Of a stretch of DNA of 64,000 nt, positions 13,863 to 59,763 are shown one piece after another. Each line of letters begins with the position of its first letter. Within the stretch, counting starts at the first letter, position 1. The notes beneath the pieces were generated by a model. The model made no database searches. It was not told the origin of the DNA and saw only the letters and a program-made list of their open reading frames with translations. The DNA comes from Enterobacteria phage GEC-3S, in sequence record HE978309. One strand, written 5' to 3'. A program made the position numbers and the translations under genes.

Positions 13863-13904
13863 GCTAGTATAAAACTAGTCCCCGTTTGAGTCAACCATTA
13901 TTTC
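13863..13904 (-). promoter_or_regulatory. terminator-promoter cassette between alt and the alt-like gene
   Basis: minus strand TTGACT, 17-nt spacer, TATACT; 11-bp stem-loop spanning spacer and -10. Confidence 0.4.
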
Positions 13905-13911
13905 TTAAAAA

Positions 13912-15963
13912 TTACATTTTAAATTTATCTGGCATTGCGTCTACAGATACCAGATCAGCGATAAGCTGACGTAGAGTTGCCTTATCTGCTTTCTTACGTT
14001 CGGTTTTAGCTTCGCTAATGAAGCTGGAGAAAGACAGGTCAGAAGCAGGTTTAACAACACCCTCACGGATGAATGCATCACCGTCCGCGATCATCTCGCC
14101 AGATTCTTGTAATGCTGCCAGTTCACTTTTGTTCATAATATGTGCCTCAATGTAATAAGTTTCTTGTGAATCCGTAGATGCCGTAGCACGAGTTACCGTA
14201 TCAAAGGATAACACAACACCGCGAGGAAGTAAAATCTCGCATTCTTTGTAAGCAAATGCTTTGTTACCTACTGGCAATACAGGGATGTTTTCCGCGCCAG
14301 CAATGGAGAAAGCAACATTAGCGCCACCTTCACCGCGAGATCCAGCCATAGAATCTACCCCAGCAACGGCACTAGCCACGTTTGCATTCCAGCCGCCAAA
14401 AATGTTAGGTGCAAGGGAAGTGCTCACGTAGTTTTTAAAGTAAAACGCTTTTTGCTTACGTGCAGTTTCCCACATTTGAGACCGGAAGTCCATACCACGA
14501 TACAGAATAGTACCCGGATCAAGTTTAACGCCATAGTTAGAGAAGGCATTATCCAGTGCATCGCACATCTTGACCAATTCTTCTGGATCTGCGATTCCCT
14601 CAAACTCTTCCAGCTTGCGATCAGTTAGGAAGTTGTTCATATTGATGTATGCTGCATCGGCATATTCGCTCAACACAAAACCTTCCGCGCCCGGCAGATC
14701 AAGATCAATATCTGCCATCATTTCACCCATGTTGCTAGCAATTGCTTCAAACATACCGGAAGCAACATTACGAAGGGCATCGGTTTTAATCTGGGTGATA
14801 TGACTACGCAGCATTTCAGCTTTTACATCTGCTGGCATAGACTGGTCTACTCGATCCATTGCCAGGGCGGTGATCTTGTTTTCGAATACTTCCTCGCTCA
14901 TGATTTCTTTTAAGCGTTTGATTGATGCTGCGATAACTTCCGCAGACAACGGATCATATTGATCCTGAACTTTTACCAGTTCGCTTACTGCGTATTTTGC
15001 ATCGGCTTCGCTTTCAAAAATAGTACGCATGAAACCATAGCGAGTGATAATATCACTTGTCCAGTCATTCAGAGAACGGGCGGTTGAACGTTCTAAGGCT
15101 TGACGGTCAATCAGAGTATTAAACTGTTTCTTAGGTTCTGCTTCGGTGATATCTTCTTCCGGTTTAAGATTAATTTTTTCTGGATGATTCACATAGTCGC
15201 TGTTATAGGTCGCTTGAGTTTTCAGCATTTCTTCTTTAGTCAAACGAGATTTAGCCGCTACGCGTTGTTCTGCTTCCGCGTTTCGTTCTTCTTCTGACAC
15301 AAGACTAGCCGCATATGCCTCATCTTTAGTCAGAGATTCACCAGTAGCCTTAGATACCCAGCGATCACCTAAATCACTTTCTACTTTAGTGAACAAGGAT
15401 TCATCAAGTTTAATCCCTTTAATCTTATCAATCGCCATCCCGCGACGCTTGACAACAACTAAAGCGATCTTTTTGCTGGTCATTACTTCCTGCTGGAATA
15501 CTTCAAACTTCGGTGTACGACGCACCAAACGCTCTATAACGCGCTTAACCAGTTCGGTCTTACCTTTCATGCGGGATACGTTAAAACGGAACATAACAGC
15601 GTCTAATTGCGCTTTACGGGCTGTTTCCATAACCACATCAAACGCACTTGCCATAACTGCAATCGGGTTATCGCCTAGACCATTTTTAAGCTGTACAATA
15701 CGACCGCTTTTGTTCATTTCGCACAGTACAACATGTGCGGTCTTGTCGCCCATACGAATGATTTTAGGTGTTTTGTTGGTGAAGTTACAAAGACGGACAA
15801 TCACATCTTTATCGCGTGTCTGTACTGCAAAAAGCTGTTTAGGATTCTGCTTAGGCTTTAAGCACTGTACCGGAGCAATACTGCCAAAGTTTTCTTCCTC
15901 TTCCGTCAACAGCCATTTCTCGAAAGATTCAATCATTAGATCGTCGATTTCTAAGTTAAACAT
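13912..15963 (-). CDS. alt: Alt ADP-ribosyltransferase
   Basis: 683 aa (T4 Alt is 682 aa by my recollection); ART motifs ILYRG, YVSTSL, KECEIL; position after gene 54. Confidence 0.85.
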   Translation of the reverse strand: MFNLEIDDLMIESFEKWLLTEEEENFGSIAPVQCLKPKQNPKQLFAVQTRDKDVIVRLCNFTNKTPKIIRMGDKTAHVVLCEMNKSGRIVQLKNGLGDNPIAVMASAFDVVMETARKAQLDAVMFRFNVSRMKGKTELVKRVIERLVRRTPKFEVFQQEVMTSKKIALVVVKRRGMAIDKIKGIKLDESLFTKVESDLGDRWVSKATGESLTKDEAYAASLVSEEERNAEAEQRVAAKSRLTKEEMLKTQATYNSDYVNHPEKINLKPEEDITEAEPKKQFNTLIDRQALERSTARSLNDWTSDIITRYGFMRTIFESEADAKYAVSELVKVQDQYDPLSAEVIAASIKRLKEIMSEEVFENKITALAMDRVDQSMPADVKAEMLRSHITQIKTDALRNVASGMFEAIASNMGEMMADIDLDLPGAEGFVLSEYADAAYINMNNFLTDRKLEEFEGIADPEELVKMCDALDNAFSNYGVKLDPGTILYRGMDFRSQMWETARKQKAFYFKNYVSTSLAPNIFGGWNANVASAVAGVDSMAGSRGEGGANVAFSIAGAENIPVLPVGNKAFAYKECEILLPRGVVLSFDTVTRATASTDSQETYYIEAHIMNKSELAALQESGEMIADGDAFIREGVVKPASDLSFSSFISEAKTERKKADKATLRQLIADLVSVDAMPDKFKM

Positions 15964-16004
15964 TTTATATCCTCTAGTTGATAACCTATAAACCTATATT
16001 TATG

Positions 16005-16030
16005 AAAAAGGGGCTTAACGCCCCCTTTTA
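16005..16030 (-). terminator. rho-independent terminator
   Basis: hairpin GGGGC-GTTAAG-GCCCC(U) then U-run on minus strand. Confidence 0.45.
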
Positions 16031-16243
16031 TTATAATGCACCATCGAGCAATTGCTCTAAGGTGTATCCTGAATAGTCTTTTTCAATCAGGGTATATTTT
16101 CCTACTCGTTTAATACAACCGCGCATTTCCACGTATTCTGTGTAGTTGATGGTACGAGTTGTTCCATCTTCCAGTAATGCAGTACCGATTTCGTTAATGC
16201 GGTCATAAGTTACGTCGGTAATGATGATTTCGATGTTAGCCAT
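16031..16243 (-). CDS. hypothetical early protein (70 aa)
   Basis: ORF track; GGAGTATCAA RBS; promoter cassette upstream. Confidence 0.5.
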   Translation of the reverse strand: MANIEIIITDVTYDRINEIGTALLEDGTTRTINYTEYVEMRGCIKRVGKYTLIEKDYSGYTLEQLLDGAL

Positions 16244-16277
16244 TTGATACTCCTTAGTAGTTCGTTTCGGTATGGGT

Positions 16278-16318
16278 GTATTATGATATACACCCTCTGT
16301 TATGTCAACAACTTTTTA
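16278..16318 (-). promoter_or_regulatory. early promoter cassette (PeSL-like)
   Basis: minus strand TTGACA, 17 nt, CATAAT; stem-loop GGGTGTAT...ATACACCC. Confidence 0.55.
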
Positions 16319-16495
16319 GAACATTTTTGAAATTAATTTTGCTTTGATTTCGCAGAGAACACCTAAAGATTTCTCGTCACCCGCTTTTGCTGCTTCTGAT
16401 TGCATTTTTGAAATGGCTTCAATGTCAGTGCAATTATAAGCCGCTTGAACTTTAGCGATTGCGATGATTGCCGATTCGATGGTTAAGTGTTTCAT
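16316..16495 (-). CDS. hypothetical small protein (59 aa)
   Basis: sub-60-aa ORF MKHLTIESAIIAIAK...; GGAGAATCAAAC RBS; own promoter cassette. Confidence 0.45.
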   Translation of the reverse strand: MKHLTIESAIIAIAKVQAAYNCTDIEAISKMQSEAAKAGDEKSLGVLCEIKAKLISKMF

Positions 16496-16524
16496 GTTTG
16501 ATTCTCCTTTCGTTTCGGTATGTG

Positions 16525-16566
16525 TGCATTATAGGGGATCACCGATCCCCTGTCAACAACTTTTTA
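16525..16566 (-). promoter_or_regulatory. early promoter cassette (PeSL-like)
   Basis: TTGACA, spacer GGGGATCGGTGATCCCC (17-nt palindrome), TATAAT. Confidence 0.6.
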
Positions 16567-17082
16567 GTTATTTTTTAATTGCTCATCTTGCAATAGGGAA
16601 ATCACATGCTGGCGATGTTCTTCCGATTGAGGAACACCGAAAAAGTTTGTTTTGTAGAAATACTCTAATCGGTCTTCTCGTGTGCTCTCTTCCATCATGA
16701 TCGCGGGTAGTCCGAGATTTCGGAAACGTCGCTTTTCTGCTGGCGTAAAATCACTGTAATACAACATAGAATCATCATTACCCGCAATGCTAAATTCATC
16801 CTTCATAAAGGAGAATATTGCGTTTAAACGCTGTTTACCGTCCACGATTTCGATCTCATAGCGAGATCCATCATCAATCTTAGCCATTGCGATAGCACCA
16901 ACCGGAAAATCATTAATCAGGTTTTCGATAAACATACGTTTGTTTTCGGTGTCCCATACCAAAGGACGCTGATAATCTGGGTTCATGTTGATATAGCCAT
17001 CTTCTAACCACGCCTCATAAACAGAGATGACAAAGTTTTTAGTATTGGTATAGTAACGGCGTTTAGGCGTTAAACGGTTCAT
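16564..17082 (-). CDS. DUF262 (ParB/GmrS N-terminal-like) domain protein
   Basis: ORF track 16564..17118; start ATG coupled to upstream stop (TAACATG) with AGGAGA RBS; motifs PDYQRPLVWD and IVDGKQRL. Confidence 0.6.
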   Translation of the reverse strand: MNRLTPKRRYYTNTKNFVISVYEAWLEDGYINMNPDYQRPLVWDTENKRMFIENLINDFPVGAIAMAKIDDGSRYEIEIVDGKQRLNAIFSFMKDEFSIAGNDDSMLYYSDFTPAEKRRFRNLGLPAIMMEESTREDRLEYFYKTNFFGVPQSEEHRQHVISLLQDEQLKNN

Positions 17083-17083
17083 G

Positions 17084-18371: not shown

Positions 18372-18619
18372 GCTGCCCCCGTTGGTTTGATAGTAACAGA
18401 ATCTAAAAGACCTTTGTTAGCCAGTTCGCGGCAAGTTTTCAGATCCGCAACTTCCCAGCCAGCCGCAATCAGGTTATCAATCAGGCTGTTAGCAACTTCT
18501 TCGCTCATGAAAGAGCACTGTTTGCCGATGGTGTAGCGTACACGCTGTAATTTCAGTTTACGGAAGCCTTTAACGTTCAGGTCTTTAGCGATTTTCTTTG
18601 CGGTTTCGATGTTAGCCAT
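18368..18619 (-). CDS. hypothetical early protein (83 aa)
   Basis: ORF track; first gene after a promoter cassette; GGAGAATCAAAC RBS. Confidence 0.5.
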   Translation of the reverse strand: MANIETAKKIAKDLNVKGFRKLKLQRVRYTIGKQCSFMSEEVANSLIDNLIAAGWEVADLKTCRELANKGLLDSVTIKPTGAA

Positions 18620-18656
18620 TGTTTGATTCTCCTAAGTGGTATCTCGTCTTGATGGT

Positions 18657-18698
18657 TGTATTGTAGGGGAGTTATCCTCCCCTGTCAACACTTTTTAT
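18657..18698 (-). promoter_or_regulatory. early promoter cassette (PeSL-like)
   Basis: TTGACA, spacer GGGGAGGATAACTCCCC palindrome, TACAAT. Confidence 0.55.
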
Positions 18699-18702
18699 AA
18701 AA

Positions 18703-18870
18703 TTATTTGTTAATTTCTGGTGCGTTGCTAGGATAGTAACCTTCTTTAACTCCGAGGTATTTCGCAACCATCCCTACAATCTTCTGTGCTACTACAATGT
18801 CAAATTTCAGATAATCTTCGCCGTAGGTTTCAATGATATATGCTTCACATGCTGCTTTAGTCTCGAACAT
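18703..18870 (-). CDS. small protein, copy A of a duplicated gene (55 aa)
   Basis: MFETKAACEAYIIETYGEDYLKFDIVVAQKIVGMVAKYLGVKEGYYPSNAPEINK; about 85% nt identity to 21979..22146. Confidence 0.5.
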   Translation of the reverse strand: MFETKAACEAYIIETYGEDYLKFDIVVAQKIVGMVAKYLGVKEGYYPSNAPEINK

Positions 18871-18902
18871 TTTGATTCTCCTATATTTCGTTTCGGTATG
18901 GG

Positions 18903-18944
18903 TGTATTATAGGGGATCTCCCGATCCCCGTCAACAACTTTTTT
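18903..18944 (-). promoter_or_regulatory. early promoter cassette (PeSL-like)
   Basis: TTGACG, spacer GGGATCGGGAGATCCCC, TATAAT, conserved leader. Confidence 0.6.
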
Positions 18945-18948
18945 AAAA

Positions 18949-19230
18949 TTATTCGTGATTAGTTTCGATGTTGTGCATTTTGCACCAGTTCAGCCAATCG
19001 ACCAGGTCTTGATAGTTGATGCTTTTATCTGCTGCCATCGTTTTTGTCTTGATACCCATATGTGCGTTATGAGTAAGCATTTTTACAGTGAACTCAATTT
19101 TATCGCCTTTAGCTTTAACATCAACCAGTTTGGTCCACTGGCTACCAGCGCCGCGAATGTTCATGCCAACGATGTTTCCGATGTATGCTTCTTTGTTTTT
19201 CAGGATTTCGGTTGCTTTGATGAATTTCAT
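18949..19230 (-). CDS. hypothetical early protein (93 aa)
   Basis: ORF track; GGAGAATCAAA RBS. Confidence 0.5.
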   Translation of the reverse strand: MKFIKATEILKNKEAYIGNIVGMNIRGAGSQWTKLVDVKAKGDKIEFTVKMLTHNAHMGIKTKTMAADKSINYQDLVDWLNWCKMHNIETNHE

Positions 19231-19261
19231 TTTTGATTCTCCAGTTCGTTTCGGTATGGGT

Positions 19262-19303
19262 GTATTATGCTATGTTCTTACTTTGGTGTCAACAACTTTT
19301 TTA
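19262..19303 (-). promoter_or_regulatory. early promoter cassette (PeSL-like)
   Basis: TTGACA, 17-18 nt, CATAAT, conserved leader ACACCCATACCGAAACGAAC. Confidence 0.55.
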
Positions 19304-19570
19304 GATATTTTCAGAAATAAATTTTAAAACTTGACGTAAATGTTTCTCATCTTTGATAGTCGCCGGAAGTTCTTCTTTTACTTCCTGTGCAAGATAGATA
19401 TTTCCGTTCCAAGTGAAAGATCCGTCTTCGTTTACGCGATAGCTGAACATCCACTCGCAATCATTTTCGATTTCATATACACATAGAAGAGTATAATCTT
19501 CAAAGCTATTGATTTCAAGGTCGAAGCCGTGACGTTTTGCAAAGTTGGTAGTGGTTTTAGTCAGTGCCAT
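19301..19570 (-). CDS. hypothetical early protein (89 aa)
   Basis: ORF track; GGAGAATCAAAC RBS. Confidence 0.5.
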   Translation of the reverse strand: MALTKTTTNFAKRHGFDLEINSFEDYTLLCVYEIENDCEWMFSYRVNEDGSFTWNGNIYLAQEVKEELPATIKDEKHLRQVLKFISENI

Positions 19571-19606
19571 TGTTTGATTCTCCTAAGTGGTATCTCGTTT
19601 CGATGG

Positions 19607-19648
19607 GTGTATTATGCTATAGGCGTGATCTGGTGTCAATTCTTTTTT
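19607..19648 (-). promoter_or_regulatory. early promoter cassette (PeSL-like)
   Basis: TTGACA then CATAAT-like -10, conserved leader variant. Confidence 0.5.
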
Positions 19649-19659
19649 TAAATTTTATG

Positions 19660-19687
19660 CAATAAAAAAGCCGACGCTATGGTCGGC
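19660..19687 (-). terminator. rho-independent terminator
   Basis: hairpin AGCCGACC-AUAGC-GUCGGCU then UUUUUUAUU. Confidence 0.5.
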
Positions 19688-19695
19688 TAATAAAA

Positions 19696-20004: not shown

Positions 20005-20026
20005 AGTATTATCCTCAATAGTTGGA

Positions 20027-20054: not shown

Positions 20055-20342
20055 TTAAAACAGTCCTTCCTGTACACCGTAGTAGAGTTCGTCGCTGATA
20101 ATTTCATTAATGCGACGGTGTGCATATTCCTGATTTGCGAAGTTGTCAGCAAGTTCTATTTTAGTTTCGCCGTCATGAGTCCATTTAGTGATAACTTTAC
20201 CATCTGCAAATTTGAAGTTGAACTCTTTAGCTACTGCATCGCGTACCAGACGTGCAAACTTATTGTTGCGGATTGCATTGTCGGTTTCGTGTGCAGCGTG
20301 AGCAAATTTGTTAACTTTCAGAGTGATAGTGATGTATGCCAT
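20055..20342 (-). CDS. hypothetical early protein (95 aa), related to 23382..23693
   Basis: ORF track; shared segment ...RNNKFARLVRDAVAKEFNFKF vs ...LIREVRKALAKEFNTKI. Confidence 0.5.
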   Translation of the reverse strand: MAYITITLKVNKFAHAAHETDNAIRNNKFARLVRDAVAKEFNFKFADGKVITKWTHDGETKIELADNFANQEYAHRRINEIISDELYYGVQEGLF

Positions 20343-20385
20343 AATTTGATTCTCCTAGTTAGAAAGTGTATCTCGTTTCGATGGG

Positions 20386-20427
20386 GATATTATGCTATAT
20401 CCCCGATCCGGTGTCAACACTTTTTAT
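20386..20427 (-). promoter_or_regulatory. early promoter cassette (PeSL-like)
   Basis: TTGACA; -10 CATAAT lies inside hairpin GGGGATAT...ATATCCCC. Confidence 0.5.
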
Positions 20428-20702
20428 AAAATAATTTTTTGATATTTTTCTATGATGTTCGTGTAAGTCACATCAACCGCTAGCACTGTTGCTTCGAATC
20501 CACCGTTTAGCCAATGGCTATGATCATGGTCGTGAAAGAAACCTAGACCAGTACGAAGACCTTCTTTATATTCTGCGCGTACATTCAGTTTGTCGTCGAT
20601 AAACAGATAAAACCATGAATTTTTACTAGGATTGATGATACAACCTTTCAGATTAGGGAGAATATCACGACTAAGAATAAACTTATCACCTACTTTGAAC
20701 AT
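20424..20702 (-). CDS. HxHW-family small protein, paralog 2
   Basis: ORF track 20424..20717; start ATG with GAGGA RBS; WFYLFIDDKLNV...HDHDHSHW...VLAVDV. Confidence 0.55.
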   Translation of the reverse strand: MFKVGDKFILSRDILPNLKGCIINPSKNSWFYLFIDDKLNVRAEYKEGLRTGLGFFHDHDHSHWLNGGFEATVLAVDVTYTNIIEKYQKIIL

Positions 20703-21734: not shown

Positions 21735-21914
21735 TTAGAAAGGGATGGTCATTTCTTGAGCTTGTACATTCTCGTTAGGATTAAACTTCATCCAACCGAT
21801 ATTGTCTACCAGCATATGCACATTTTTATCATATCCTACGTGAGTAGTCAACACTAAATGTGCTTTACATTCAACGATGATTTCCATGTACTTCTGAACT
21901 TCGATAGCTTTCAT
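21735..21914 (-). CDS. hypothetical small protein (59 aa)
   Basis: sub-60-aa ORF MKAIEVQKYMEIIVECKAHL...; GGAGAATCAAA RBS; promoter cassette upstream. Confidence 0.4.
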   Translation of the reverse strand: MKAIEVQKYMEIIVECKAHLVLTTHVGYDKNVHMLVDNIGWMKFNPNENVQAQEMTIPF

Positions 21915-21943
21915 TTTGATTCTCCGTTTGTTGTCTTGATGGG

Positions 21944-21985
21944 AGTATCTTACTACTCCCTTTAATCATTGTCAACGATTATTTG
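21944..21985 (-). promoter_or_regulatory. early promoter cassette (PeSL-like)
   Basis: TTGACA, spacer containing GGGAGTAGTAAGATACTCCC hairpin, weak -10. Confidence 0.45.
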
Positions 21986-22146
21986 TTAATTTCTGGTGCG
22001 TTGCTCGGATAGTAACCTTCTTTAACACCCAGATATTTTGCAACCATTCCGGTGATCTTCTGTGCTACTACGATATCGAATTTCAGGTAGTCTTCACCGT
22101 GGTTTGCTACAATGTATGCTTCGCATTCTGCTTTAGTCTGGAACAT
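21979..22146 (-). CDS. small protein, copy B of a duplicated gene (55 aa)
   Basis: ORF track 21979..22212; start at MFQTKAECEAY... with GGAGAATCAAAA RBS; duplicate of 18703..18870. Confidence 0.5.
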   Translation of the reverse strand: MFQTKAECEAYIVANHGEDYLKFDIVVAQKITGMVAKYLGVKEGYYPSNAPEINK

Positions 22147-22177
22147 TTTTGATTCTCCTATATCTCGTTGGTATGTG

Positions 22178-22219
22178 TGTAGTATAGGGGATCGGTGATC
22201 CCCTGTCAACAACTTTTTT
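22178..22219 (-). promoter_or_regulatory. early promoter cassette (PeSL-like)
   Basis: TTGACA, spacer GGGGATCACCGATCCCC, TATACT. Confidence 0.55.
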
Positions 22220-22526
22220 ATTCTTCATCTTCATTTTTATCTTTATATGCGTACTTCATAAATTTGTCTGCTACTTTGTCCGCGTTTTCAGGTTCTACGT
22301 CTGACGCTAGGACAACAGCTAGTTCGGTTTTGTCGTTTCCGTCATACCAATGATTATGAGTGTCGTTTTCTTCGATATAAAACGAATCATTTGGAGTTGT
22401 TCGACAATATACGTCTAAATTCCCATCGATATAAAAGATCCAATCCGAATACAAAATGATTGCTTTAGCCAGATTTTTATTGTCTCTTACAAAAGGTTCC
22501 GCGACAAATAGCTTAGTTTGTTCCAT
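22218..22526 (-). CDS. HxHW-family small protein, paralog 5
   Basis: ORF track 22218..22583; start at MEQTKLF... with GAGGAAAA RBS; WIFYIDGNLDVY...HNHW...AVVLASDV. Confidence 0.55.
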   Translation of the reverse strand: MEQTKLFVAEPFVRDNKNLAKAIILYSDWIFYIDGNLDVYCRTTPNDSFYIEENDTHNHWYDGNDKTELAVVLASDVEPENADKVADKFMKYAYKDKNEDEE

Positions 22527-23129: not shown

Positions 23130-23309
23130 TTACATAACAATCACGCCAGCCGTTGAAAGTTGATGTTTCAACTGAGCATTTTCTGCTACCGTCAAATCAA
23201 TGATTTCTTGTGACGCTGCAATCATATATCCATTGGTGATATTGTTTTGCATCAGTTCAATGGTTTCTTCGTTGTAGCGGATTTTAGCGATGATTTCGTT
23301 GAAGTTCAT
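23130..23309 (-). CDS. hypothetical small protein (59 aa)
   Basis: sub-60-aa ORF MNFNEIIAKIRYNEETIELMQ...; GGAGAATCAATC RBS. Confidence 0.4.
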   Translation of the reverse strand: MNFNEIIAKIRYNEETIELMQNNITNGYMIAASQEIIDLTVAENAQLKHQLSTAGVIVM

Positions 23310-23341
23310 GATTGATTCTCCTAGTTCGTTTCGGTATGTGT

Positions 23342-23383
23342 GTATTATAGGGGATCTCCCGATCCCCTGTCAACAACTTTTTT
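23342..23383 (-). promoter_or_regulatory. early promoter cassette (PeSL-like)
   Basis: TTGACA, spacer GGGGATCGGGAGATCCCC, TATAAT, conserved leader. Confidence 0.6.
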
Positions 23384-23693
23384 AAAGTTTTTCCATGATA
23401 ACGGTCATAATTACATCTTCTGCGCGAGCGGTCAGATTATCAGCGTCAGCATGTGGGCGGTTGGTTGTTACAGAGATAGCACCGTTGCGCACTGGTTTGA
23501 TATTGATATCAAGATGATCCGCGAAACGTTCGCCAGTTACAGAATGAATTTTGGTGTTAAATTCTTTTGCCAGTGCCTTGCGAACTTCACGAATCAGGGT
23601 AGCGTTTTTCAGTTGGTTCTCCGCGCTCATGGTCTTCTGGGTGTTCATGGTTCCGTCGAAGTCAATCATTGGCAGCGTTACGATGTATTTCAT
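23382..23693 (-). CDS. hypothetical early protein (103 aa), related to 20055..20342
   Basis: ORF track; GGAGAATCAAAA RBS. Confidence 0.5.
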   Translation of the reverse strand: MKYIVTLPMIDFDGTMNTQKTMSAENQLKNATLIREVRKALAKEFNTKIHSVTGERFADHLDINIKPVRNGAISVTTNRPHADADNLTARAEDVIMTVIMEKL

Positions 23694-23736
23694 TTTTGAT
23701 TCTCCGTTTAAGAAAGTGTGTTTCGTTTTGATGTGT

Positions 23737-23778
23737 GTATTATAAGGGGATCACCGATCCCCTGTCAACAACTTTTTG
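23737..23778 (-). promoter_or_regulatory. early promoter cassette (PeSL-like)
   Basis: TTGACA, spacer GGGGATCGGTGATCCCC, TATAAT. Confidence 0.6.
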
Positions 23779-23780
23779 AA

Positions 23781-24257
23781 TTATTTTTCTTGATGCTCGC
23801 GCTCGTACTTTTCGAAATAAAATTCTACTGGCTGATCGTGGATTGAAAGCAAGCCAAAGCGTTTAGCCGCTCGCAATCCCATATTGCGCTGAATGTACTT
23901 CTGGAAGTTCTCGCGTATACACTTACGCCAGTATTCTAAGCCCATACAGCTTTTATAAAGATTGCATTGCACACACGCCGGATTCATGTTATCAAGTATA
24001 TCATGTTCCGGTTTATGCATTCCTACAACCTTATACTTCCACGATCCATCATCATTACGGGCAATTCGTCCATTTTCATCATAGACTACCTTTGAGCGTC
24101 GCAATACTGGTTTGATATGGTCTGCGTGCCAGCGATCCCCTAGTTCCTCGCCACAATAGGCACAACGCCCACCGTATTTCATTTTCAGGATCTGGCGTTG
24201 CTCTTTCTTTGACAATTTTTTAGGTTTAGGGGCTTTCGCCCCTTCATTATCACACAT
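23781..24257 (-). CDS. HNH endonuclease (free-standing, homing-endonuclease-like)
   Basis: 158 aa; CAYCG...HADHIKP...N...ACVQCN HNH motif; start overlaps ligase stop. Confidence 0.65.
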   Translation of the reverse strand: MCDNEGAKAPKPKKLSKKEQRQILKMKYGGRCAYCGEELGDRWHADHIKPVLRRSKVVYDENGRIARNDDGSWKYKVVGMHKPEHDILDNMNPACVQCNLYKSCMGLEYWRKCIRENFQKYIQRNMGLRAAKRFGLLSIHDQPVEFYFEKYEREHQEK

Positions 24258-31164: not shown

Positions 31165-31563
31165 TTAACTTTCCAGAATATCGCGAGCTTCGTTACGCTC
31201 CTTGATGATTTTCAGGACAAATTCCAGTTTTTCTTTGTTTAGTGTTCCGTTTTCCATTGCTTCTTTGACGGTAAACACTCCGCCACCTTGCCCGTATACA
31301 GTGACAGTGATTTCACCTAACATCGTGGTATGAAAACCGCCAATTTTCGGTGATTCGAAAGAAACAATTACCTCGCGGACAGTATTACCGTCGTTGATTT
31401 CTGAGAGGGTAATGTCGTTTTTGTAGGCGGTTGCTTTAACCATACGGATCAGCATAGTCTGATCTGGGGAGATGGTCATTTTGTCCATTGCATGTTGCAA
31501 TGCAGCGTAACCGAAAACTTTAACGAAGTCCAGAACGTCTTTGCGAGTTTGAAATTTAATCAT
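31165..31563 (-). CDS. hypothetical protein (132 aa)
   Basis: ORF track; own promoter cassette. Confidence 0.5.
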   Translation of the reverse strand: MIKFQTRKDVLDFVKVFGYAALQHAMDKMTISPDQTMLIRMVKATAYKNDITLSEINDGNTVREVIVSFESPKIGGFHTTMLGEITVTVYGQGGGVFTVKEAMENGTLNKEKLEFVLKIIKERNEARDILES

Positions 31564-31593
31564 CTTGATACTCCTTAGTTGTTTTAGTATTGG

Positions 31594-31635
31594 AGTATCT
31601 TACTACTCCCGTGATATGCTGTCAACTGCTTTTTT
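31594..31635 (-). promoter_or_regulatory. early promoter cassette (PeSL-like)
   Basis: TTGACA, spacer with GGGAGTAGTAAGATACTCC hairpin. Confidence 0.5.
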
Positions 31636-31783
31636 ATGCAACCGCAAACATCAACATTTGAACATTCTTGGCTGTCTGGCTTTCAAAGTTCTGACATTCT
31701 TTGATAATGTCCTCTACTTTCTCTCCGGAGATCTCCGCGTAAGTTTCGATTGCCATTTTCAGTACCGCGTCAAAGTTGTTCAT
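31634..31783 (-). CDS. hypothetical small protein (49 aa)
   Basis: sub-60-aa ORF MNNFDAVLKMAIETYAEISGEK...; AAGGAGAATCAA RBS. Confidence 0.4.
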   Translation of the reverse strand: MNNFDAVLKMAIETYAEISGEKVEDIIKECQNFESQTAKNVQMLMFAVA

Positions 31784-31818
31784 TTGATTCTCCTTAAAGT
31801 GTATTTCGTTTCGATGGG

Positions 31819-31860
31819 GGTATATTAATACCCCCGTTATTCAGTGTCAACTACTTTTTA
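31819..31860 (-). promoter_or_regulatory. early promoter cassette (PeSL-like)
   Basis: TTGACA; hairpin GGGGGTAT-TAAT-ATACCCCC over the -10 region. Confidence 0.5.
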
Positions 31861-32069
31861 ATGACAAGTTCGAATTTTGCTACCTTGCGTCCGCGTTTAT
31901 TGAAAGCAACCCACGGACGGTTTTCAATGTAGAACAATTCTTCGCCAATAATGAATACTGGCTGATTGTAAAGTCGACCCATCAGGTCACGTTGACGAAT
32001 AGTAGTAGATTCGTATACTTCGCCCACTACAAAGTGTTTGTTGATAGAGTCGGTGCAAATAAATTTCAT
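31851..32069 (-). CDS. hypothetical protein (72 aa)
   Basis: ORF track; AGGAGAATCAAA RBS. Confidence 0.5.
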   Translation of the reverse strand: MKFICTDSINKHFVVGEVYESTTIRQRDLMGRLYNQPVFIIGEELFYIENRPWVAFNKRGRKVAKFELVIKK

Positions 32070-32096
32070 TTTGATTCTCCTTTGTTTCTTGGTGGG

Positions 32097-32138
32097 GTAT
32101 ATTACTACCCCCGTTATTCAGTGTAAACTACTTTTTAC
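32097..32138 (-). promoter_or_regulatory. early promoter cassette (PeSL-like)
   Basis: GTTTACA -35 (T4-type), hairpin GGGGGTAGTAATATACCCC. Confidence 0.5.
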
Positions 32139-32353
32139 TTGTTGTATTCATTCCACCATTGGGTGAGCTTATCAATTATTTTTGTGTTTCTATCCAACTT
32201 ATCCCACCGTTTTCGAGGGTTTATCAACCGGAATAGGTAAGGTGTACTTGTTAAGTGAACTCGGTCAATATAGTGATTGATGTACTGCTTTTCGATTCTA
32301 AGTTTCATCTTTTTACGATGAAAATATGCAATAACTTGTTCTTCTGTTTCCAT
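32135..32353 (-). CDS. hypothetical protein (72 aa)
   Basis: ORF track; GGAGGAACAT RBS. Confidence 0.5.
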   Translation of the reverse strand: METEEQVIAYFHRKKMKLRIEKQYINHYIDRVHLTSTPYLFRLINPRKRWDKLDRNTKIIDKLTQWWNEYNK

Positions 32354-32374
32354 ATGTTCCTCCGTCTCGATGTG

Positions 32375-32416
32375 CGTATTATGCTATGGTAAGATCCGAT
32401 TGTCAACACCCAATAA
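32375..32416 (-). promoter_or_regulatory. early promoter (sigma70-like)
   Basis: TTGACA, about 17 nt, CATAAT; immediately follows a terminator hairpin. Confidence 0.5.
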
Positions 32417-32442
32417 CAAAAAAGTCGCCACTATGGGCGACT
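32412..32442 (-). terminator. rho-independent terminator
   Basis: hairpin AGUCGCCC-AUAGU-GGCGACU then UUUUUUGUUAUU. Confidence 0.5.
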
Positions 32443-32453
32443 TTGAACAAACA

Positions 32454-34631: not shown

Positions 34632-34659
34632 AATAAAATCCTCACTTGTTTTTGATGGT

Positions 34660-39154: not shown

Positions 39155-39484
39155 TCAAATCAGTTTGAAATAGTTTTCGTTTACATTTTCTTCTGTGATT
39201 GCTGTCTTAAATTCTTGACCGTTATCCGGTGTGATGAAATAACGGTCAGAATAATCACGAAAACGTTTTAAGTGAGATACCCCAACATTAACACCATTTT
39301 CCCAAAAACGAAAGGTAATCATTTTTGGTTCATATCGATAGTCGCTGGTTAACACAGTACCATCACCGCGACGGGCTTCATAAACCGTAATACATTCACG
39401 ATTAGCGGCTTTAAGGCATTCTTCAATAGTGCCGCATGAGATAATACTTACTTTTTCATCTACGATTTGTTCTACAGTCCACAT
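39155..39484 (-). CDS. hypothetical protein (~109 aa)
   Basis: ORF track 39155..39517; the first ATG lies inside the promoter -10; second ATG has GAGAGGAT RBS. Confidence 0.45.
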   Translation of the reverse strand: MWTVEQIVDEKVSIISCGTIEECLKAANRECITVYEARRGDGTVLTSDYRYEPKMITFRFWENGVNVGVSHLKRFRDYSDRYFITPDNGQEFKTAITEENVNENYFKLI

Positions 39485-39512
39485 AATATAATCCTCTCTT
39501 TGTTTCGATATG

Positions 39513-39554
39513 TGCATTATACACTATTGCGTTACGCTGTCAACTCTTTTTCAA
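39513..39554 (-). promoter_or_regulatory. early promoter (sigma70-like)
   Basis: TTGACA, about 16 nt, TATAAT. Confidence 0.5.
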
Positions 39555-40829: not shown

Positions 40830-41804
40830 TTACATCGCTAACAGAGAGTCAAGGTCATCCAGATCAGAAGCGGAGGAAGTACCGCCACCCAGGTCCAGAG
40901 ATGCCATCAGGTCATCAGCGGAAGAATCTAACGCCGTGCTAGCTGCGTTAATACCAACTACAGTGCTAGCTGCGGTAATACCAGAGTCGAATGCATTCAT
41001 CTGTGCGTCAAAATCGTCAAGCTGACTGTTAATCGCTGCCGCAGCACTGGAAGCCGCAGCACCCGCTACCATAGAAACGCCCATAGTTTTCTTAAATTTG
41101 GTTTCCAGTTCATCGAACGGTTTAAACTGGCTAGGCGCTACAATCTCACTCAGATCAACCATGTTTTCCATCAGATATTTCTGATATGCTTCGTCTTCAA
41201 TCTTCGGAAGCTGTGATTGCTGCATGAAACGAGAATCATCATAGTTCTGGTGTTTATCAACCTTCTTAGCTTTCAGGAGGAAGTTAGCACCGGAGAACAC
41301 ACAAGTTACATCTACCGGAACTTCGCCCATGTCGGTATTCACGTTCACCATTGCAACGATCTTATCATAAATTTTCTGACCGAATCGGAATTTGAATACT
41401 TTACCTTCATTTTCTGGTGCTTGAGGATCTTTCAGTACAAGAATGTTTGCGTAGTAAGACGCTTTACGCTTAATCAGTTGCCATTCGGTTTTATCGGTAT
41501 TGTATAGGTCTTTTTCGTTAATATATTTGCACACAGGGCAAGAATCAAAATCACCGTGGGTGCTGGAGCAGTTTTCCCAATACCATTTACCATTAACTTT
41601 GAAGGAATGGTTTACCAGTTTCACAATCGGCAGACCGTCTTCTGTCTTAGACGGCAGGAAGCGAATCAGGGCTTCACCGTTACCTGCTGCATCAGTCTTA
41701 ATCTTCCACTCTTTCGGATCTTCTTTTGAGAAACCGTTGCCACCTTTCAGTGCGGCCAGTTGAGCTTGCAGTTTGGAAGAATCTTGGCGTTTAAACATAT
41801 TCAC
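40830..41804 (-). CDS. 32: gp32 single-stranded DNA-binding protein
   Basis: 324 aa; zinc-binding C/H cluster and acidic Ser/Asp-rich C-terminal tail as in T4 gp32; synteny. Confidence 0.9.
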
Positions 41805-41858
41805 TATTCCTTCTTTTGATTAATTTACTAGACTATTATACAGATTTAAATTTACTTG

Positions 41859-42539
41859 TCAACTATTTGTTTCGGCTTTTAATTGAGATATTTCTTTACA
41901 CTCTTTAACTACTTTAACAAATAATGCTCTTGCTTTTGCGGCGTCAATAACAAGTAGTTTCTTGTACGCCTTCATTTTAACACTATAAGTTTGCCAAATC
42001 AAGTCTTTGGCTACCTTGTCGTGTTCGTCGATTATATTTAGAAAGCTATCTAACAACATAAACGACTCAAACGATATAATCCGATTTTGCAGTAGTTTAA
42101 AGATACCGCTAGTTTCGGTTGCGGGATTGTATGTAATTAGCTCTTTAAGAGTAACCCCGCGTTTCTCGGAGAAGTATACCAGACTTTTAATGTCATCGTC
42201 AAATCTTGTTGCTGCATCGGTTATCTTTCCTATGTATTCCATATAAAAGCCGTATGCGTCAACATCAGTGATTTCACCTACCCATGCATCGGTATTAGCT
42301 ACCAGATTGCTTAGGAATAAGAAGTATAATTCTCTTAGATTGTACTTTTCCGCTAATTTTGCGAAATAATACTTATCTCTGCGTTTATTGAATGCGGCAT
42401 CAGACAACCGCATCCTCCAATTGTATTTTACGCAATCATAACGCCCGTTCATATGAGCTTTCATCATGCAATATAACATATACACAGATTTAGCATTAAT
42501 TCGCATATCTGGATCTGGAGGAAGACGGTTTCTGATCAT
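41859..42539 (-). CDS. 59: gp59 helicase loader
   Basis: 226 aa; KSVYMLYCMMKAHMNGRYD...YNWRMRLSDAAFNKRRDKYYF matches T4 gp59. Confidence 0.9.
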   Translation of the reverse strand: MIRNRLPPDPDMRINAKSVYMLYCMMKAHMNGRYDCVKYNWRMRLSDAAFNKRRDKYYFAKLAEKYNLRELYFLFLSNLVANTDAWVGEITDVDAYGFYMEYIGKITDAATRFDDDIKSLVYFSEKRGVTLKELITYNPATETSGIFKLLQNRIISFESFMLLDSFLNIIDEHDKVAKDLIWQTYSVKMKAYKKLLVIDAAKARALFVKVVKECKEISQLKAETNS

Positions 42540-57590: not shown

Positions 57591-58391
57591 TTAACCCTTC
57601 TTATATTCGCAAACATATTGAGTACCATAATCATAGCTAATGCGACCTTTCTCGATGACTTCAAAGCGGATTTCATCGTTTTCCCCTACCCACATTTTGT
57701 ACTCGTTGAAGTATCCTGCTACATCCGGTTTGCTCATACCAACAACCATATTTTTATATTGTTTGCTGCGTGTCAGATTTGATTTAAACACTTCGCGCTC
57801 ATCAACATATACGAAAGAAGACAATTCACCTTCGGTCATGGTCATTTTCAGCTTGCCGCCCTTGTTGCCATAAGTAGAGTTGCCATACAATGGATCTTTG
57901 CGGCTGTCTGTTTCAATACCATCAATGATTTTCCATGTAAATTTTGCAATGCACTGATAAGTGATAGATCCAGAGATTTTCTCTTCTTTCTTCTGTTCTT
58001 CCACCACTTTTTCTTCCTGTTTCGGCTGTTCTTCTTCAACCTTCACGGAAGTCTCTGAATCGATTTCTGACGCGGTTTCTTCTTTAGGTAATACATTCAT
58101 CAAGTTTTGGATTTGAGCGTTATATACAGCCTCCAGTGGCTGGATCTGCCCGATATTGATCATTGTATCACGAACAGTTTTATTCCAGTTGCGTTGCTCT
58201 TGTTTAAGAGACGGATCAATCTTAACAGCCTTAACATATACTTCATGAAGTTTCGAATCCAGTGCGGAGATTGACTCATTAGCACAAATAAACTTCTCTG
58301 ATTTGGTAGTAGCTTTAGCGCAATCAAAGGACGCAGCATTAGCACCGAAAGCAGTAGCAGAAAGAACGATAGCAGCGATAATGTTTTTCAT
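57591..58391 (-). CDS. secreted protein with DUF1311 (LprI-like) N-terminal domain
   Basis: 266 aa; signal peptide MKNIIAAIVLSATAFGANA; FDCAKATTKSEKFIC...LDSKLHEVY. Confidence 0.5.
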   Translation of the reverse strand: MKNIIAAIVLSATAFGANAASFDCAKATTKSEKFICANESISALDSKLHEVYVKAVKIDPSLKQEQRNWNKTVRDTMINIGQIQPLEAVYNAQIQNLMNVLPKEETASEIDSETSVKVEEEQPKQEEKVVEEQKKEEKISGSITYQCIAKFTWKIIDGIETDSRKDPLYGNSTYGNKGGKLKMTMTEGELSSFVYVDEREVFKSNLTRSKQYKNMVVGMSKPDVAGYFNEYKMWVGENDEIRFEVIEKGRISYDYGTQYVCEYKKG

Positions 58392-58421
58392 AATATATTC
58401 CTCAATGTTTTTCTTGATGGG

Positions 58422-58463
58422 AGTATCTTACTACTCCCTTAATCCGGTGTCAACTACTTTTTA
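58422..58463 (-). promoter_or_regulatory. early promoter cassette (PeSL-like)
   Basis: TTGACA with GGGAGTAGTAAGATACTCCC hairpin. Confidence 0.5.
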
Positions 58464-58673
58464 ATTTTTACCCACTCGTGCATTAATGCGCATTTTCTGC
58501 ATAGCCATGATCTGGTTTACTGCTTCTTCTTTACGTTCTTGCGTGATAACGTGACCAGATTCCGCAAACTCTCCAGCAACTTCTTCTACGATCTCGCGAA
58601 CTTGAGAACGTCCAAAGATGCGGTTTCCTTCGTAGCTCATAAATTCAGTCACTACTTGCTCAATAGATTTCAT
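58461..58673 (-). CDS. hypothetical protein (70 aa)
   Basis: ORF track; GGAGAATCACATG RBS. Confidence 0.5.
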   Translation of the reverse strand: MKSIEQVVTEFMSYEGNRIFGRSQVREIVEEVAGEFAESGHVITQERKEEAVNQIMAMQKMRINARVGKN

Positions 58674-58703
58674 GTGATTCTCCTTCTTTCGTTTCGGTGT
58701 GGT

Positions 58704-58745
58704 AGTATGTTAATACTCCCATTTCTTTACGTCAACCAGTTTTTA
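58704..58745 (-). promoter_or_regulatory. early promoter cassette (PeSL-like)
   Basis: TTGACG then TAACAT-like -10, conserved leader. Confidence 0.45.
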
Positions 58746-58985
58746 GAAATTTTTCGCTTCTTCTTCGGTCATCATCACCGCGCATTCGTGCATAACTTTG
58801 AAAACCGGGTCAATCATATCGAATGCTTCGCGGGACAGTTTACGAGAAGCGATTTTGACTGCTTCAACGTCTTCTACTACAGGAACAAAAACAGTTTTCA
58901 GTTCGTCGAGCATGGCAGCTTCTTTTTCATTCAGGAAGATTCCAGCGTCGTACAATGCAACTTCGATAACATTAACTTTAACCAT
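58743..58985 (-). CDS. hypothetical protein (~80 aa)
   Basis: ORF track 58743..59048; start MVKVNVIE with GGAGGAAATAAAA RBS. Confidence 0.45.
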   Translation of the reverse strand: MVKVNVIEVALYDAGIFLNEKEAAMLDELKTVFVPVVEDVEAVKIASRKLSREAFDMIDPVFKVMHECAVMMTEEEAKNF

Positions 58986-59016
58986 TTTTATTTCCTCCAG
59001 TTCGTTTCGGTATGGG

Positions 59017-59058
59017 AGTATAATACTACCGATGACCTTTGGCGTCAACTAGTTTTTG
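59017..59058 (-). promoter_or_regulatory. early promoter cassette (PeSL-like)
   Basis: TTGACG, 17 nt, TATTAT-like, conserved leader ACTCCCATACCGAAACGAAC. Confidence 0.5.
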
Positions 59059-59249
59059 TTATTTTCGTGAAAATTTTTCGTCGCCTCATGTGCTTTTCTC
59101 TGGGCTTCTTGTTGTGCTTGCTGGCGTGCTGCCTCTTGCGATGTCATAACGGAAGCATTTGCAGCAGTTACAGCCGCGACCATCGCTGCGGTATTAGCAT
59201 TTACAGTACATGCACTAGCCAGCAAAGCAATTGCAATCATTTTCTTCAT
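59049..59249 (-). CDS. small secreted/periplasmic protein (66 aa)
   Basis: signal peptide MKKMIAIALLASACTVNA; Gln/Ala-rich mature part. Confidence 0.45.
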   Translation of the reverse strand: MKKMIAIALLASACTVNANTAAMVAAVTAANASVMTSQEAARQQAQQEAQRKAHEATKNFHENNKN

Positions 59250-59416
59250 AGTTTCCCCTTTAGGTTATCTTCGACCTTCATCCATTCCGCGTATTCTTGC
59301 GCGGCTACTTTCGGATTTAGTCCGTCTTCGTACATTGCTTCAAGTAATTCTTCGTCGGTGGGCTTATACCCTAGATAAGCCTCCACCTGATTTTTCCAAA
59401 TTTTATACCAGTTCAT
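59246..59416 (-). CDS. hypothetical small protein (56 aa)
   Basis: ORF track 59246..59485; start MNWYKIWKNQ with GGTGATAAT RBS. Confidence 0.4.
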   Translation of the reverse strand: MNWYKIWKNQVEAYLGYKPTDEELLEAMYEDGLNPKVAAQEYAEWMKVEDNLKGKL

Positions 59417-59420
59417 ATTA

Positions 59421-59693
59421 TCACCAGTCAAGAGCGCGTGTCTCTGCGTCTTCCCATGCTTGATCCATAACAGCCTTGAAAACATATTCTAAAGTATCAT
59501 CTTTAGAGAATCCGAAGACCTTAGACGGGATATCTTCAATTGCTACTCCCGCAACTTCTGCATTACGCGCTTGGCAATAATGCAACTCTAAGTTATCGAG
59601 ATAGCGACCGCCTAATTTCTCCATATCATCCCAGCATTTCCAGTAACCTACTTTATCTGCAATTGCTAACACTTTGCTGTTTTTGTTGCTCAT
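59421..59693 (-). CDS. hypothetical protein (90 aa)
   Basis: ORF track 59421..59783; start MSNKNSK with AAAAGGAGAATCAAAG RBS. Confidence 0.45.
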   Translation of the reverse strand: MSNKNSKVLAIADKVGYWKCWDDMEKLGGRYLDNLELHYCQARNAEVAGVAIEDIPSKVFGFSKDDTLEYVFKAVMDQAWEDAETRALDW

Positions 59694-59721
59694 CTTTGAT
59701 TCTCCTTTTGTTTGGTATGGG

Positions 59722-59763
59722 TGTATTATGCAATGCTGGATTTGTGAAGTCAACAACTTTTTA
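59722..59763 (-). promoter_or_regulatory. early promoter cassette (PeSL-like)
   Basis: TTGACT, 17 nt, CATAAT, conserved leader ACACCCATACCAAACAAAAGGAGAATCAAAG. Confidence 0.55.

Follow-up and report, generated by a model that had tools for sequence, protein, structure and literature searches.

The promoter-early stem-loop elements (PeSLs) of phages phi1 and RB49 are the closest described relatives of the promoter cassettes that we report here in a 64,000-nucleotide stretch of Enterobacteria phage GEC-3S (sequence record HE978309; the whole stretch is called the window, and position 1 is its first letter). By definition, a PeSL combines a sigma-70-like early promoter with a polyG/polyC stem-loop and, upstream, an AT-rich tract (Arbiol, Comeau, Kutateladze, Adamia and Krisch 2010, Genome Biol Evol 2:140, PMC2839356). 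These authors reported about 52 copies in phi1 and about 51 in RB49, mainly in the hyperplastic regions and upstream of ORFans, and divided them into five subclasses by the position of the stem (between the -35 box and the -10 box, over either of them, upstream, and downstream), with spacer stems and -10 overlaps being the commonest. The published stems include G-T pairs and block sequencing reactions, and conservation extends over about 100 bp. In the same study, PeSL206/205 gave about 13,000 Miller units and the stem of PeSL211/210 lowered lacZ expression about as strongly as rrnB T1. Finally, 10 out of 14 differential ORFans adjoined a PeSL, and the mini-circles shown by inverse PCR, a product of PeSL x PeSL exchange, had junctions between the -10 box and the ATG.

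The cassettes of the window are very likely PeSLs of the phi1/RB49 lineage, that is, self-contained linkers for expression and recombination, and they are orthologues of the published elements and not merely PeSL-like. Window positions 15000-25000 were matched over their full length by Escherichia phage Phi1 (EF437941/NC_009821, 114882-124883) at 98.8% identity, and about 60 further Krischvirus genomes (RB49, JSE-like phages, kvi, ECD7 and others) matched them at 90-99%. Judged by its sequence, the window is DNA of a phi1/RB49-type "pseudo-T-even" coliphage, a T4-type phage of the genus Krischvirus. According to the Phi1 and RB49 annotations, the cassettes extend over alt, the small hypothetical genes of a hyperplastic region (ORF185-ORF212), nucleotide-metabolism and replication genes, tail-fibre genes on the opposite strand and a second region of small open reading frames (ORFs). 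We compared it with seven relatives, namely Phi1, RB49, kvi, SFHK24, KFS-EC, PHB13 and kaaroe. In Phi1, RB49 and five other Krischviruses, the same genes have orthologous cassettes in front of them, and the published definition was matched feature by feature: a promoter in all 24 copies, an AT-rich upstream tract, a stem-loop in the expected positions (7 in the spacer, 8 at the -10 box and 4 upstream, within or beside the AT-rich tract), an association with indels, and an intergenic, hyperplastic location directly upstream of an ORFan, with a Shine-Dalgarno sequence and a start codon at the 3' end. Nothing essential differs between the published PeSLs and these cassettes, which share lineage, promoter, AT tract, stem positions, ORFan neighbours and indel association. 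The GEC-3S window does have some other stem variants and modules, e.g. a segment of about 500 bp with its own cassette (58757-59258), and it lacks RB49 ORF192, ORF195/196 and ORF211. The first-pass annotation of the window, which had called the cassettes PeSL-like, was right, and the finding is a correct rediscovery of what has been known in this lineage since 2010. From the Phi1 ORF numbers we infer that cassettes 22209 and 23768 (numbered as in the list below) are the experimentally tested PeSL206/205 and PeSL211/210, respectively.

We detected 24 copies of a cassette of about 95 nucleotides (nt), every one on the minus strand, which bears out the earlier count of more than 20 recurring early promoter cassettes. 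In a scan of the whole window, GTTGACA-N17-TAnnnT gave 12 matches, all on the minus strand, versus 0.21 expected. A profile built from 19 copies recovered 22 members at E<1e-4, exclusively on the minus strand, and added copies 32127, 32406 and 58735; 13894 and the early promoter of gene 32 (41862), both weak members, bring the total to 24. The cassettes cluster at 13.9, 16.3-23.8, 31.6-32.4, 34.7, 39.5-41.9 and 58.4-59.8 kb, and the profile scan placed copies at each cluster that had been named beforehand. A chance origin of the family was ruled out by these motif counts and by the enrichment of hairpins over shuffled sequences (given below).

A looser scan gave the order of the unit as A-tract, (G)TTGACA, 16-18 nt, TATAAT/CATAAT/TAAGAT, ACACCC, AUACCGAAACGAA or AUCGAAACGA, GGAGAAUCAAA and ATG. 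The -35 box is exactly TTGACA in 17 of the 24 cassettes and has a single mismatch in the remaining 7, with a G before it in 22; the spacer measures 16-18 nt overall and 17 nt in 19 cassettes. The -10 box is TATAAT in 8 cases and CATAAT in 6, and all 24 copies have A at position 2 and T at position 6. The 20 nt upstream of the cassettes contain 79% A+T (60% for the window), and an A5 run was present within 25 nt upstream in 18 out of 24. The A/T-rich upstream region, GTTGACA box and 17-nt spacer of the first-pass annotation were thus recovered. The start codon lies 24-46 nt from the -10 box, all copies being on the coding (minus) strand, and GGAG was found in the ribosome-binding region of 20 cassettes. 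The downstream genes are mostly hypothetical in the Phi1 and RB49 annotations. The idea that a cassette precedes most small minus-strand genes proved too strong: of the roughly 24 genes annotated in the hyperplastic region at 16-24 kb, 11 have their own. The 24 cassettes are listed here (all minus strand; the number between the boxes is the spacer length; z, RNA-fold z-score; dG, free energy).

13833..13924, minus strand: cassette 13894, upstream of the ORF183-like ADP-ribosyltransferase gene; TTGACT-17-TATACT, a weak profile match, with a 13-bp bulged hairpin over the -10 box (13887-13856) and then UUUUCUGUU; dG -20.6 kcal/mol, z -4.6.
16243..16338, minus strand: cassette 16308, upstream of ORF185; TTGACA-17-CATAAT, -10 stem GGGTGTAT/ATACACCC (16295-16274), z -3.9.
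16495..16586, minus strand: cassette 16556, upstream of ORF186; spacer hairpin AGGGGATC-ggt-GATCCCCT (16551-16533), z -2.7.
18619..18718, minus strand: cassette 18688, upstream of ORF190; spacer hairpin AGGGGAG-gataa-CTCCCCT (18683-18665), z -4.65.
18870..18964, minus strand: cassette 18934, upstream of ORF191; TTGACG-17-TATAAT, spacer hairpin GGGGATC-ggga-GATCCCC (18929-18912); insertion site of RB49 ORF192.
19230..19322, minus strand: cassette 19292, upstream of ORF193; stem-less, z +0.2.
19570..19688, minus strand: cassette 19639, upstream of ORF194; no embedded stem, canonical terminator upstream, AGCCGAC-catagc-GTCGGCT with T-run (19688-19669); insertion site of RB49 ORF195/196.
20342..20447, minus strand: cassette 20417, upstream of ORF198; -10 stem GGGGATAT/ATATCCCC (20404-20383).
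21914..22005, minus strand: cassette 21975, upstream of ORF204; -10 stem GGGAGTA/TACTCCC (21960-21941).
22146..22239, minus strand: cassette 22209, upstream of ORF205 (published PeSL206/205); spacer hairpin AGGGGATC-acc-GATCCCCT (22204-22186).
23309..23403, minus strand: cassette 23373, upstream of ORF209; 18-nt spacer, hairpin AGGGGATC-ggga-GATCCCCT (23368-23349), z -3.9.
23693..23798, minus strand: cassette 23768, upstream of ORF210 (published PeSL211/210); spacer hairpin AGGGGATC-ggt-GATCCCCT (23763-23745); ORF211 is present at this site in RB49, KFS-EC and PHB13.
31563..31655, minus strand: cassette 31625, upstream of ORF225; 6-bp -10 stem GGAGTA/TACTCC (31609-31592), z -2.2.
31783..31880, minus strand: cassette 31850, upstream of ORF226; -10 stem GGGGGTAT/ATACCCCC (31835-31816), z -2.8.
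32069..32157, minus strand: cassette 32127, upstream of ORF227; TTTACA-17-TAATAT, 6-bp -10 stem GGGGTA/TACCCC (32111-32094), z -1.7.
32353..32444, minus strand: cassette 32406, upstream of ORF228; no embedded stem, terminator AAAGTCGCC-catagt-GGCGACTTT with T-run (32444-32421).
34631..34721, minus strand: cassette 34691, upstream of the ORF233-like gene; TTGACG-17-TATAAT, spacer hairpin GCGGGGA-gaaa-TCCCCGC (34686-34669), z -4.0.
39484..39573, minus strand: cassette 39543, upstream of ORF239; TTGACA-16-TATAAT, stem-less; gene-replacement breakpoint versus phage kvi.
40710..40821, minus strand: cassette 40768, upstream of the CapR-domain gene (ORF240-like); TTGACA-16-TATAAT, terminator AAAGCCTTCC-ttcg-GGAAGGCTTT with T-run (40821-40798); end point of replacements versus Phi1, RB49 and kvi.
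41798..41892, minus strand: cassette 41862, early promoter of gene 32; TTGACA-16-TATAAT, weak member, stem-less; 650-bp insertion in kvi.
58391..58483, minus strand: cassette 58453, upstream of ORF262; -10 stem GGGAGTA/TACTCCC (58438-58419); insertions in Phi1 and RB49.
58673..58765, minus strand: cassette 58735, upstream of a 70-amino-acid ORF; TTGACG-17-TAACAT, -10 stem decayed by one G.A mismatch and intact in Phi1 and RB49, z -0.05.
58985..59078, minus strand: cassette 59048, stem-less; inside the segment of about 500 bp (58757-59258) missing from Phi1 and RB49.
59693..59795, minus strand: cassette 59753; TTGACT-17-CATAAT, no embedded stem, terminator AAGCCGATC-cttgt-GGTCGGCTT with T-run (59795-59773).

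The RB49 orthologue of the gene 32 promoter (41862) is labelled 'early RB49 promoter' in the RB49 record. Two more consensus promoters (TTGACA-16-TATAAT) were found on the minus strand at window positions 123-183 and 708-735, one of them after a terminator hairpin, and they matched the cassette profile weakly (E 0.01) or not at all. After +1, the first ~20 nt of the leader (e.g. 16273-16244 and 19263-19231) are conserved, CA-rich and unstructured, beginning with AUACCGAAACGAA or AUCGAAACGA and ending in GGAGAAUCAAA-AUG. GGAG in a ribosome-binding site is the motif cut by the RegB endoribonuclease in T4-type phages, and the cassette-led early mRNAs may be RegB targets.

The stem-loops fall into distinct position classes. 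Seven of the 24 cassettes have the stem inside the spacer (16556, 18688, 18934, 22209, 23373, 23768 and 34691), and in another eight it straddles the -10 box (13894, 16308, 20417, 21975, 31625, 31850, 32127 and 58453), so that the 3' part of the spacer pairs with the discriminator and the -10 hexamer lies in the loop. An upstream hairpin with a T-run terminator, and no embedded stem, was found in four (19639, 32406, 40768 and 59753), neither structure in four more (19292, 39543, 41862 and 59048), and a decayed stem in one (58735). Spacer palindromes are therefore a minority class, which corrects the anatomy given at first, when the spacer was said to be usually a perfect palindrome; GGGAGTA/TACTCCC and GGGGGTAT/ATACCCCC, both cited as spacer palindromes, straddle the -10 box. 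GGGGATC-N3-GATCCCC had been named the commonest form, and this stem is indeed the commonest with five copies, but the exact N3 loop occurs in only three, the other two having a 4-nt loop. The remark that several copies directly follow a terminator hairpin applies to the four just listed.

We counted as strong hairpins all perfect Watson-Crick stems of at least 7 bp with at least 4 G-C pairs and a loop of 3-8 nt, and compared them with composition-preserving block shuffles. The window contains 27, versus 3.4 +/- 1.4 in the shuffles; 12 of the 27 fall within promoter cores (1.4% of the window) and 3 more just upstream of cassettes. RNA-fold z-scores ranged from -2.7 to -4.65 for stem-bearing cores and from -1.0 to +1.8 for stem-less cores. 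Rfam 15 gave no covariance-model match at the gathering score in the entire window on either strand. Strong hairpins in the G-run/C-run style (e.g. AAAGGCGGGGATAATCCCCGCCTTT) were also found outside the cassettes, at 12502-12526, 26419-26437, 31139-31158, 48638-48655 and 51505-51525; those ending at 26437, 31158 and 48655 are followed by a T-rich tail, and the other two are not.

The structure is conserved rather than the sequence, as had been proposed. Our collection from the window, the seven relatives and two IMG/VR contigs comprised 149 cassettes with 98 distinct core sequences, of which 36 had spacer stems, 27 had -10 stems and 35 were others. At least nine stem sequences in four registers were present; a single fixed structure for all copies fails, since the stems occupy these four registers, and structures slid out of register paired much more poorly. 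Changes on both sides of the stem (compensatory) were counted per register at 3 of 8, 1 of 8, 1 of 8 and 4 of 7 pairs, and the 98.6% of cells paired in the first register is a circular figure, the sequences having been picked for having a stem, so that unbiased measures are limited to the counts of pair types and the enrichment of hairpins over the whole window. What the co-variation figures say is that several different sequences keep the fold; the strength of selection is not gauged by them. Among the internal single mismatches of the stems, 5 were G.T, none was A.C and 3 were other (18 'C.A' counts were artefacts, produced where stems ran on into the invariant ACA...TAT of the two promoter boxes, and were excluded), which weakly favours pairing in the sense strand.

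Orthologous sites also exchange whole stems while the flanking genes remain 96-100% identical. In particular, site 20417 has GGGGATAT/ATATCCCC in most genomes and GGGTGTAT/ATACACCC in PHB13 and kaaroe, and site 23373 has GGGGATC-ggga, GGGGATC-acc or GGGGAG-gttaaa-CTCCCC among orthologues. At site 18688 the loop alone varies. At site 22209 (22186-22204) the 3-nt loop is reverse-complemented between otherwise identical cassettes (acc in kvi and KFS-EC, ggt in RB49 and kaaroe), which could reflect either an inversion in place, through template switching or the processing of a cruciform, or a conversion tract whose end lies within the identical arms. Several of the stem changes alter adjacent spacer bases as well and represent patch replacements from other cassettes, not stepwise compensatory mutation. 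Site 32127 has a chimeric stem in Phi1 and RB49, with a GGGGGTA 5' arm, a TACTCCC 3' arm and one G.T pair, and GGGGTA/TACCCC in the window and kvi; this implies a putative exchange point inside the -10 loop of the cassette.

This diversity bears on two readings in which the palindromes would be recognised as sequences. If they were operators, a dimeric DNA-binding protein, either a phage early shut-off factor or a host repressor, would turn the early promoters off. Perfect inverted repeats between or over the -35 and -10 boxes are placed where a bound protein would block RNA polymerase, five copies share GGGGATC...GATCCCC, and Arbiol et al. (PMC2839356) themselves speculate on a GGGG...CCCC-binding protein. 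One protein, however, could not read all of the arms (GGGGATC, GGGGAG, CGGGGA, GGGAGTA, GGGGGTAT, GGGGATAT, GGGTGTAT and GCGGTTAT), which occupy four registers and either of two positions with respect to the -10 box, enclose loops of 3-6 nt and belong to stems that are swapped between orthologous sites. The stems are moreover missing exactly where an upstream terminator exists, and their mismatches are G.T, never A.C; we regard operators as highly improbable. The second reading takes the paired GATC sites of the spacers as a Dam-methylation switch that would tell incoming from replicated DNA at early promoters. The 24 spacers do contain 13 GATC, versus 2.2 expected, and a GATC starts at spacer position 3-5 in eight of them (16556, 18934, 19639, 20417, 22209, 23373, 23768 and 32406), three of which are non-palindromic (19639, 20417 and 32406). 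Shared ancestry of the spacers explains this recurrence, though, and 16 of the 24 spacers have no GATC, orthologous sites swap GGGGATC for GATC-free GGGGAG stems, and over the window GATC is neither avoided nor enriched (349 observed versus 331 expected from a Markov model), which leaves such a switch hardly credible.

The place of the stems relative to the transcript suggests where they would act. The early consensus that Nolan et al. (2006) report for RB49 has C in positions -3 to -1 and is in line with mapped 5' ends, which makes the A of ACACCC-A the +1 position. Neither kind of embedded stem reaches beyond -1; the stems would thus be missing from the mRNA of their own cassette and would form only in read-through RNA from upstream or in DNA. 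Intrinsic terminators resemble the elements: in both, the upstream gene ends in a GC-rich hairpin, 7-8 bp long and with a dG of -10 to -14 kcal/mol. A GC-rich hairpin followed by a U-tract was found in the four upstream hairpins and in 13887-13856; unlike these, the other 14 embedded stems have no U-tract, their 3' tails being UAUAAU or AUACCGAAAC (in DNA, tataat or ataccgaaac). A terminator consensus scan of the minus strand at 13.5-33 kb flagged the upstream hairpins 19688 and 32444 and no spacer or -10 stem. An embedded stem and a canonical upstream terminator never occur in the same cassette (Fisher p 0.007 if 16 copies, borderline ones included, count as stem-bearing, and 0.02 if a strict 14 do), as is expected if both do the same job. 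An attenuator role of the embedded stems fits this exclusion together with the missing U-tract.

We propose that each unit of ~95 nt would be a self-contained expression linker in front of a small early gene. The A-tract/UP-like region, the consensus sigma-70 -35 and -10 boxes and the ACACCC discriminator would recruit unmodified host RNA polymerase right after infection, with transcription predicted to start at the A of CCCAU. The G-run/C-run stem-loop, in the spacer or across the -10 box, or a canonical upstream terminator as its substitute, would insulate each module: in the read-through RNA of the previous unit, the most likely effect of the stem is attenuation or termination of transcription, or the setting of a stable 3' end. 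Attenuation without a U-tract and action at the RNA level are the parts of this explanation that we infer. Promoter and terminator activity, the 5'-end mapping and the mini-circles come from the literature; the anatomy, the non-random hairpins, the co-variation of the stems and the breakpoints in cassettes come from the present comparison. The 50-100 nt common to the copies would further serve as homology patches for the phage recombination machinery, by which PeSL-plus-ORF modules could be deleted, inserted, duplicated or swapped.

The breakpoints between genomes accord with the link to modular shuffling and gene-order breakpoints that had been suggested. We took the ends of indels and replacements of at least 60 bp in BLAST chains against the seven relatives over 13.5-60.2 kb, and 13 of 22 distinct breakpoints lay in cassettes, which cover 5.4% of that range (binomial 1e-11; most relatives cover 13.5-26.5 kb, and breakpoints outside it rest on Phi1, RB49 and kvi). 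The junction overlaps measure 75-96 bp, which indicates exchange within shared sequence. ORF186 is deleted between cassettes 16556 and 16308 in KFS-EC and PHB13, and ORF210 between 23768 and 23373 in SFHK24. RB49 carries extra genes at 18934 (ORF192), 19639 (ORF195/196) and 23768 (ORF211). In kvi, the CapR-domain gene flanked by 40768 and 39543 has been replaced, and one more gene is present at the promoter of gene 32; further indels were found at cassettes 58453 and 58735. Three-way alignments of chimeric cassettes placed the crossovers within shared stretches: the leader AUACCGAAACGA for ORF186, the A-tract/-35/5' arm for ORF210 and the terminator/A-tract for ORF195/196. They fall at several positions and at no single fixed point, which agrees with the mini-circle junctions in the literature. 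Five of the 13 cassette breakpoints fall at four cassettes without an embedded stem (19639, 39543, 40768 and 41862), so the stem is unnecessary for the association. The breakpoints outside cassettes lie at 17080 (kaaroe), 39846 and 39888 (inside the CapR-domain gene), 53120-53818 (the variable region of gp37), 57621-57990 and 59259.

These crossovers also weigh on the possibility that the stems act in DNA, either as a hairpin or cruciform that marks cassettes for a structure-specific nuclease or recombinase, or as the product of template-switch 'palindrome correction' with no role in transcription. Keeping structure and not sequence, the reverse-complemented acc/ggt loops in otherwise identical orthologous cassettes and the published mini-circles that contain a PeSL plus an ORF would all suit it. 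Yet the crossovers map to leader, -35/5' arm and terminator/A-tract and not to one stem site, and five of the 13 cassette breakpoints are at cassettes without an embedded stem. Sense-strand RNA is indicated by mismatches of the G.T and never the A.C type and by the exclusion with upstream terminators. With 7-8 bp, the arms are also short for cruciform extrusion, and on the whole we consider action in DNA unlikely. A related proposal would have the stems, besides any attenuation in RNA, fold in DNA as hairpins or cruciforms during recombination-dependent replication and be inverted, corrected or cut there by a structure-specific enzyme, so that PeSLs would be attC-like, structure-defined sites generating the PeSL-plus-ORF mini-circles. 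Its only hints are the clean loop inversions (acc<->ggt) and the whole-stem swaps that always restore a perfect palindrome. An attC site is a single-strand fold that a dedicated tyrosine recombinase exchanges at a fixed position; here crossovers were variable and breakpoints occurred at stem-less cassettes, and the proposal is very unlikely.

The comparison with integrons was drawn by the PeSL authors. Integron cassettes with attC, like phage 'morons', resemble PeSLs as single-ORF modules with their own regulatory signals, and integrons share with them circular intermediates and a recombination site kept as a fold rather than a sequence. Unlike in integrons, each PeSL cassette carries a promoter, and PeSL crossovers are scattered over shared homology. 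According to the same authors there is no integrase in phi1 or RB49, while the window genome itself was not searched for a recombinase; they also note that morons, unlike PeSLs, are not thought to move via their regulatory sequences.

Several observations weigh against the PeSL interpretation set out here, or narrow it. A usable stem-loop is missing from four or five cassettes. From their sequence, the embedded stems are not predicted to terminate efficiently, and the terminator role goes back to one published lacZ fusion, which is unable to separate termination from RNA processing or instability. The co-variation comes from few independent stem types and is partly due to patch conversion between copies. 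At the ORF192 and ORF211 junctions, only one side has a cassette or shares more than ~5 nt. Finally, breakpoint enrichment was measured against all sequence; viable gene-sized indels must have their ends outside genes, and much of the intergenic space is taken up by cassettes, so that enrichment alone is no proof of a causal role.

Some of the modules next to the cassettes can be described further. The ORF191 and ORF205 modules (18702-18945 versus 21978-22220; each ORF has 168 nt in Phi1) share ~85% DNA identity that ends at the flanking cassettes, which makes them a duplicated module within one hyperplastic region. The gene at 39532-40710 (minus strand), between cassettes 40768 and 39543, encodes 392 amino acids that include four repeats of the CapR homology/treble-clef zinc-finger type (Pfam PF21817, E 5e-29); Phi1 and RB49, where different sequence replaces its 5' part, label it 'endonuclease', and kvi has a 330-nt ORF instead. 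The segment of ~500 bp at 58757-59258 comprises a 66-amino-acid ORF with a signal-peptide or lipoprotein-like N-terminus, cassette 59048 and an 80-amino-acid ORF, and neither ORF had a Pfam match. In the distal long tail fibre gene (gp37), 53120-53818 did not align to Phi1 or RB49 at the threshold used, the region measuring ~870 bp there versus ~700 bp in the window; this is a host-range hypervariable region unrelated to the cassettes.

Beyond the genus, PeSL-like elements have been extended to T4/PST and KVP40/nt-1 (Comeau et al. 2014, PMC4122927), and elements at the internal-protein loci of T-even phages were described by Repoila et al. (1994), as reported in a paper citing that work. Like the cassettes of the window, these are composite promoter/stem-loop linkers beside variable genes and are implicated in shuffling; they differ in having T4-type early promoters and weaker, AT-rich stems without polyG/polyC, and the authors consider them analogues and not homologues. 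We found the exact class-A promoter in IMG/VR in only two Krischvirus-like contigs, which gives no sign of spread outside the genus.

All this was established for phi1 and RB49 in 2010, and the present finding adds no new biology. It adds the class counts, the hairpin enrichment, the mutual exclusion with canonical terminators, the stem swapping in seven further genomes and the mapping of crossovers. It also sharpens two points, namely the puzzle that stems without a U-tract, upstream of their own +1, pose for an attenuation mechanism, and their exclusivity with ordinary upstream terminators. PeSLs drive and insulate early genes and supply the homology for shuffling those same genes, and they are among the clearest candidates for the conserved "linker" sequences of Botstein and Campbell's modular phage evolution.

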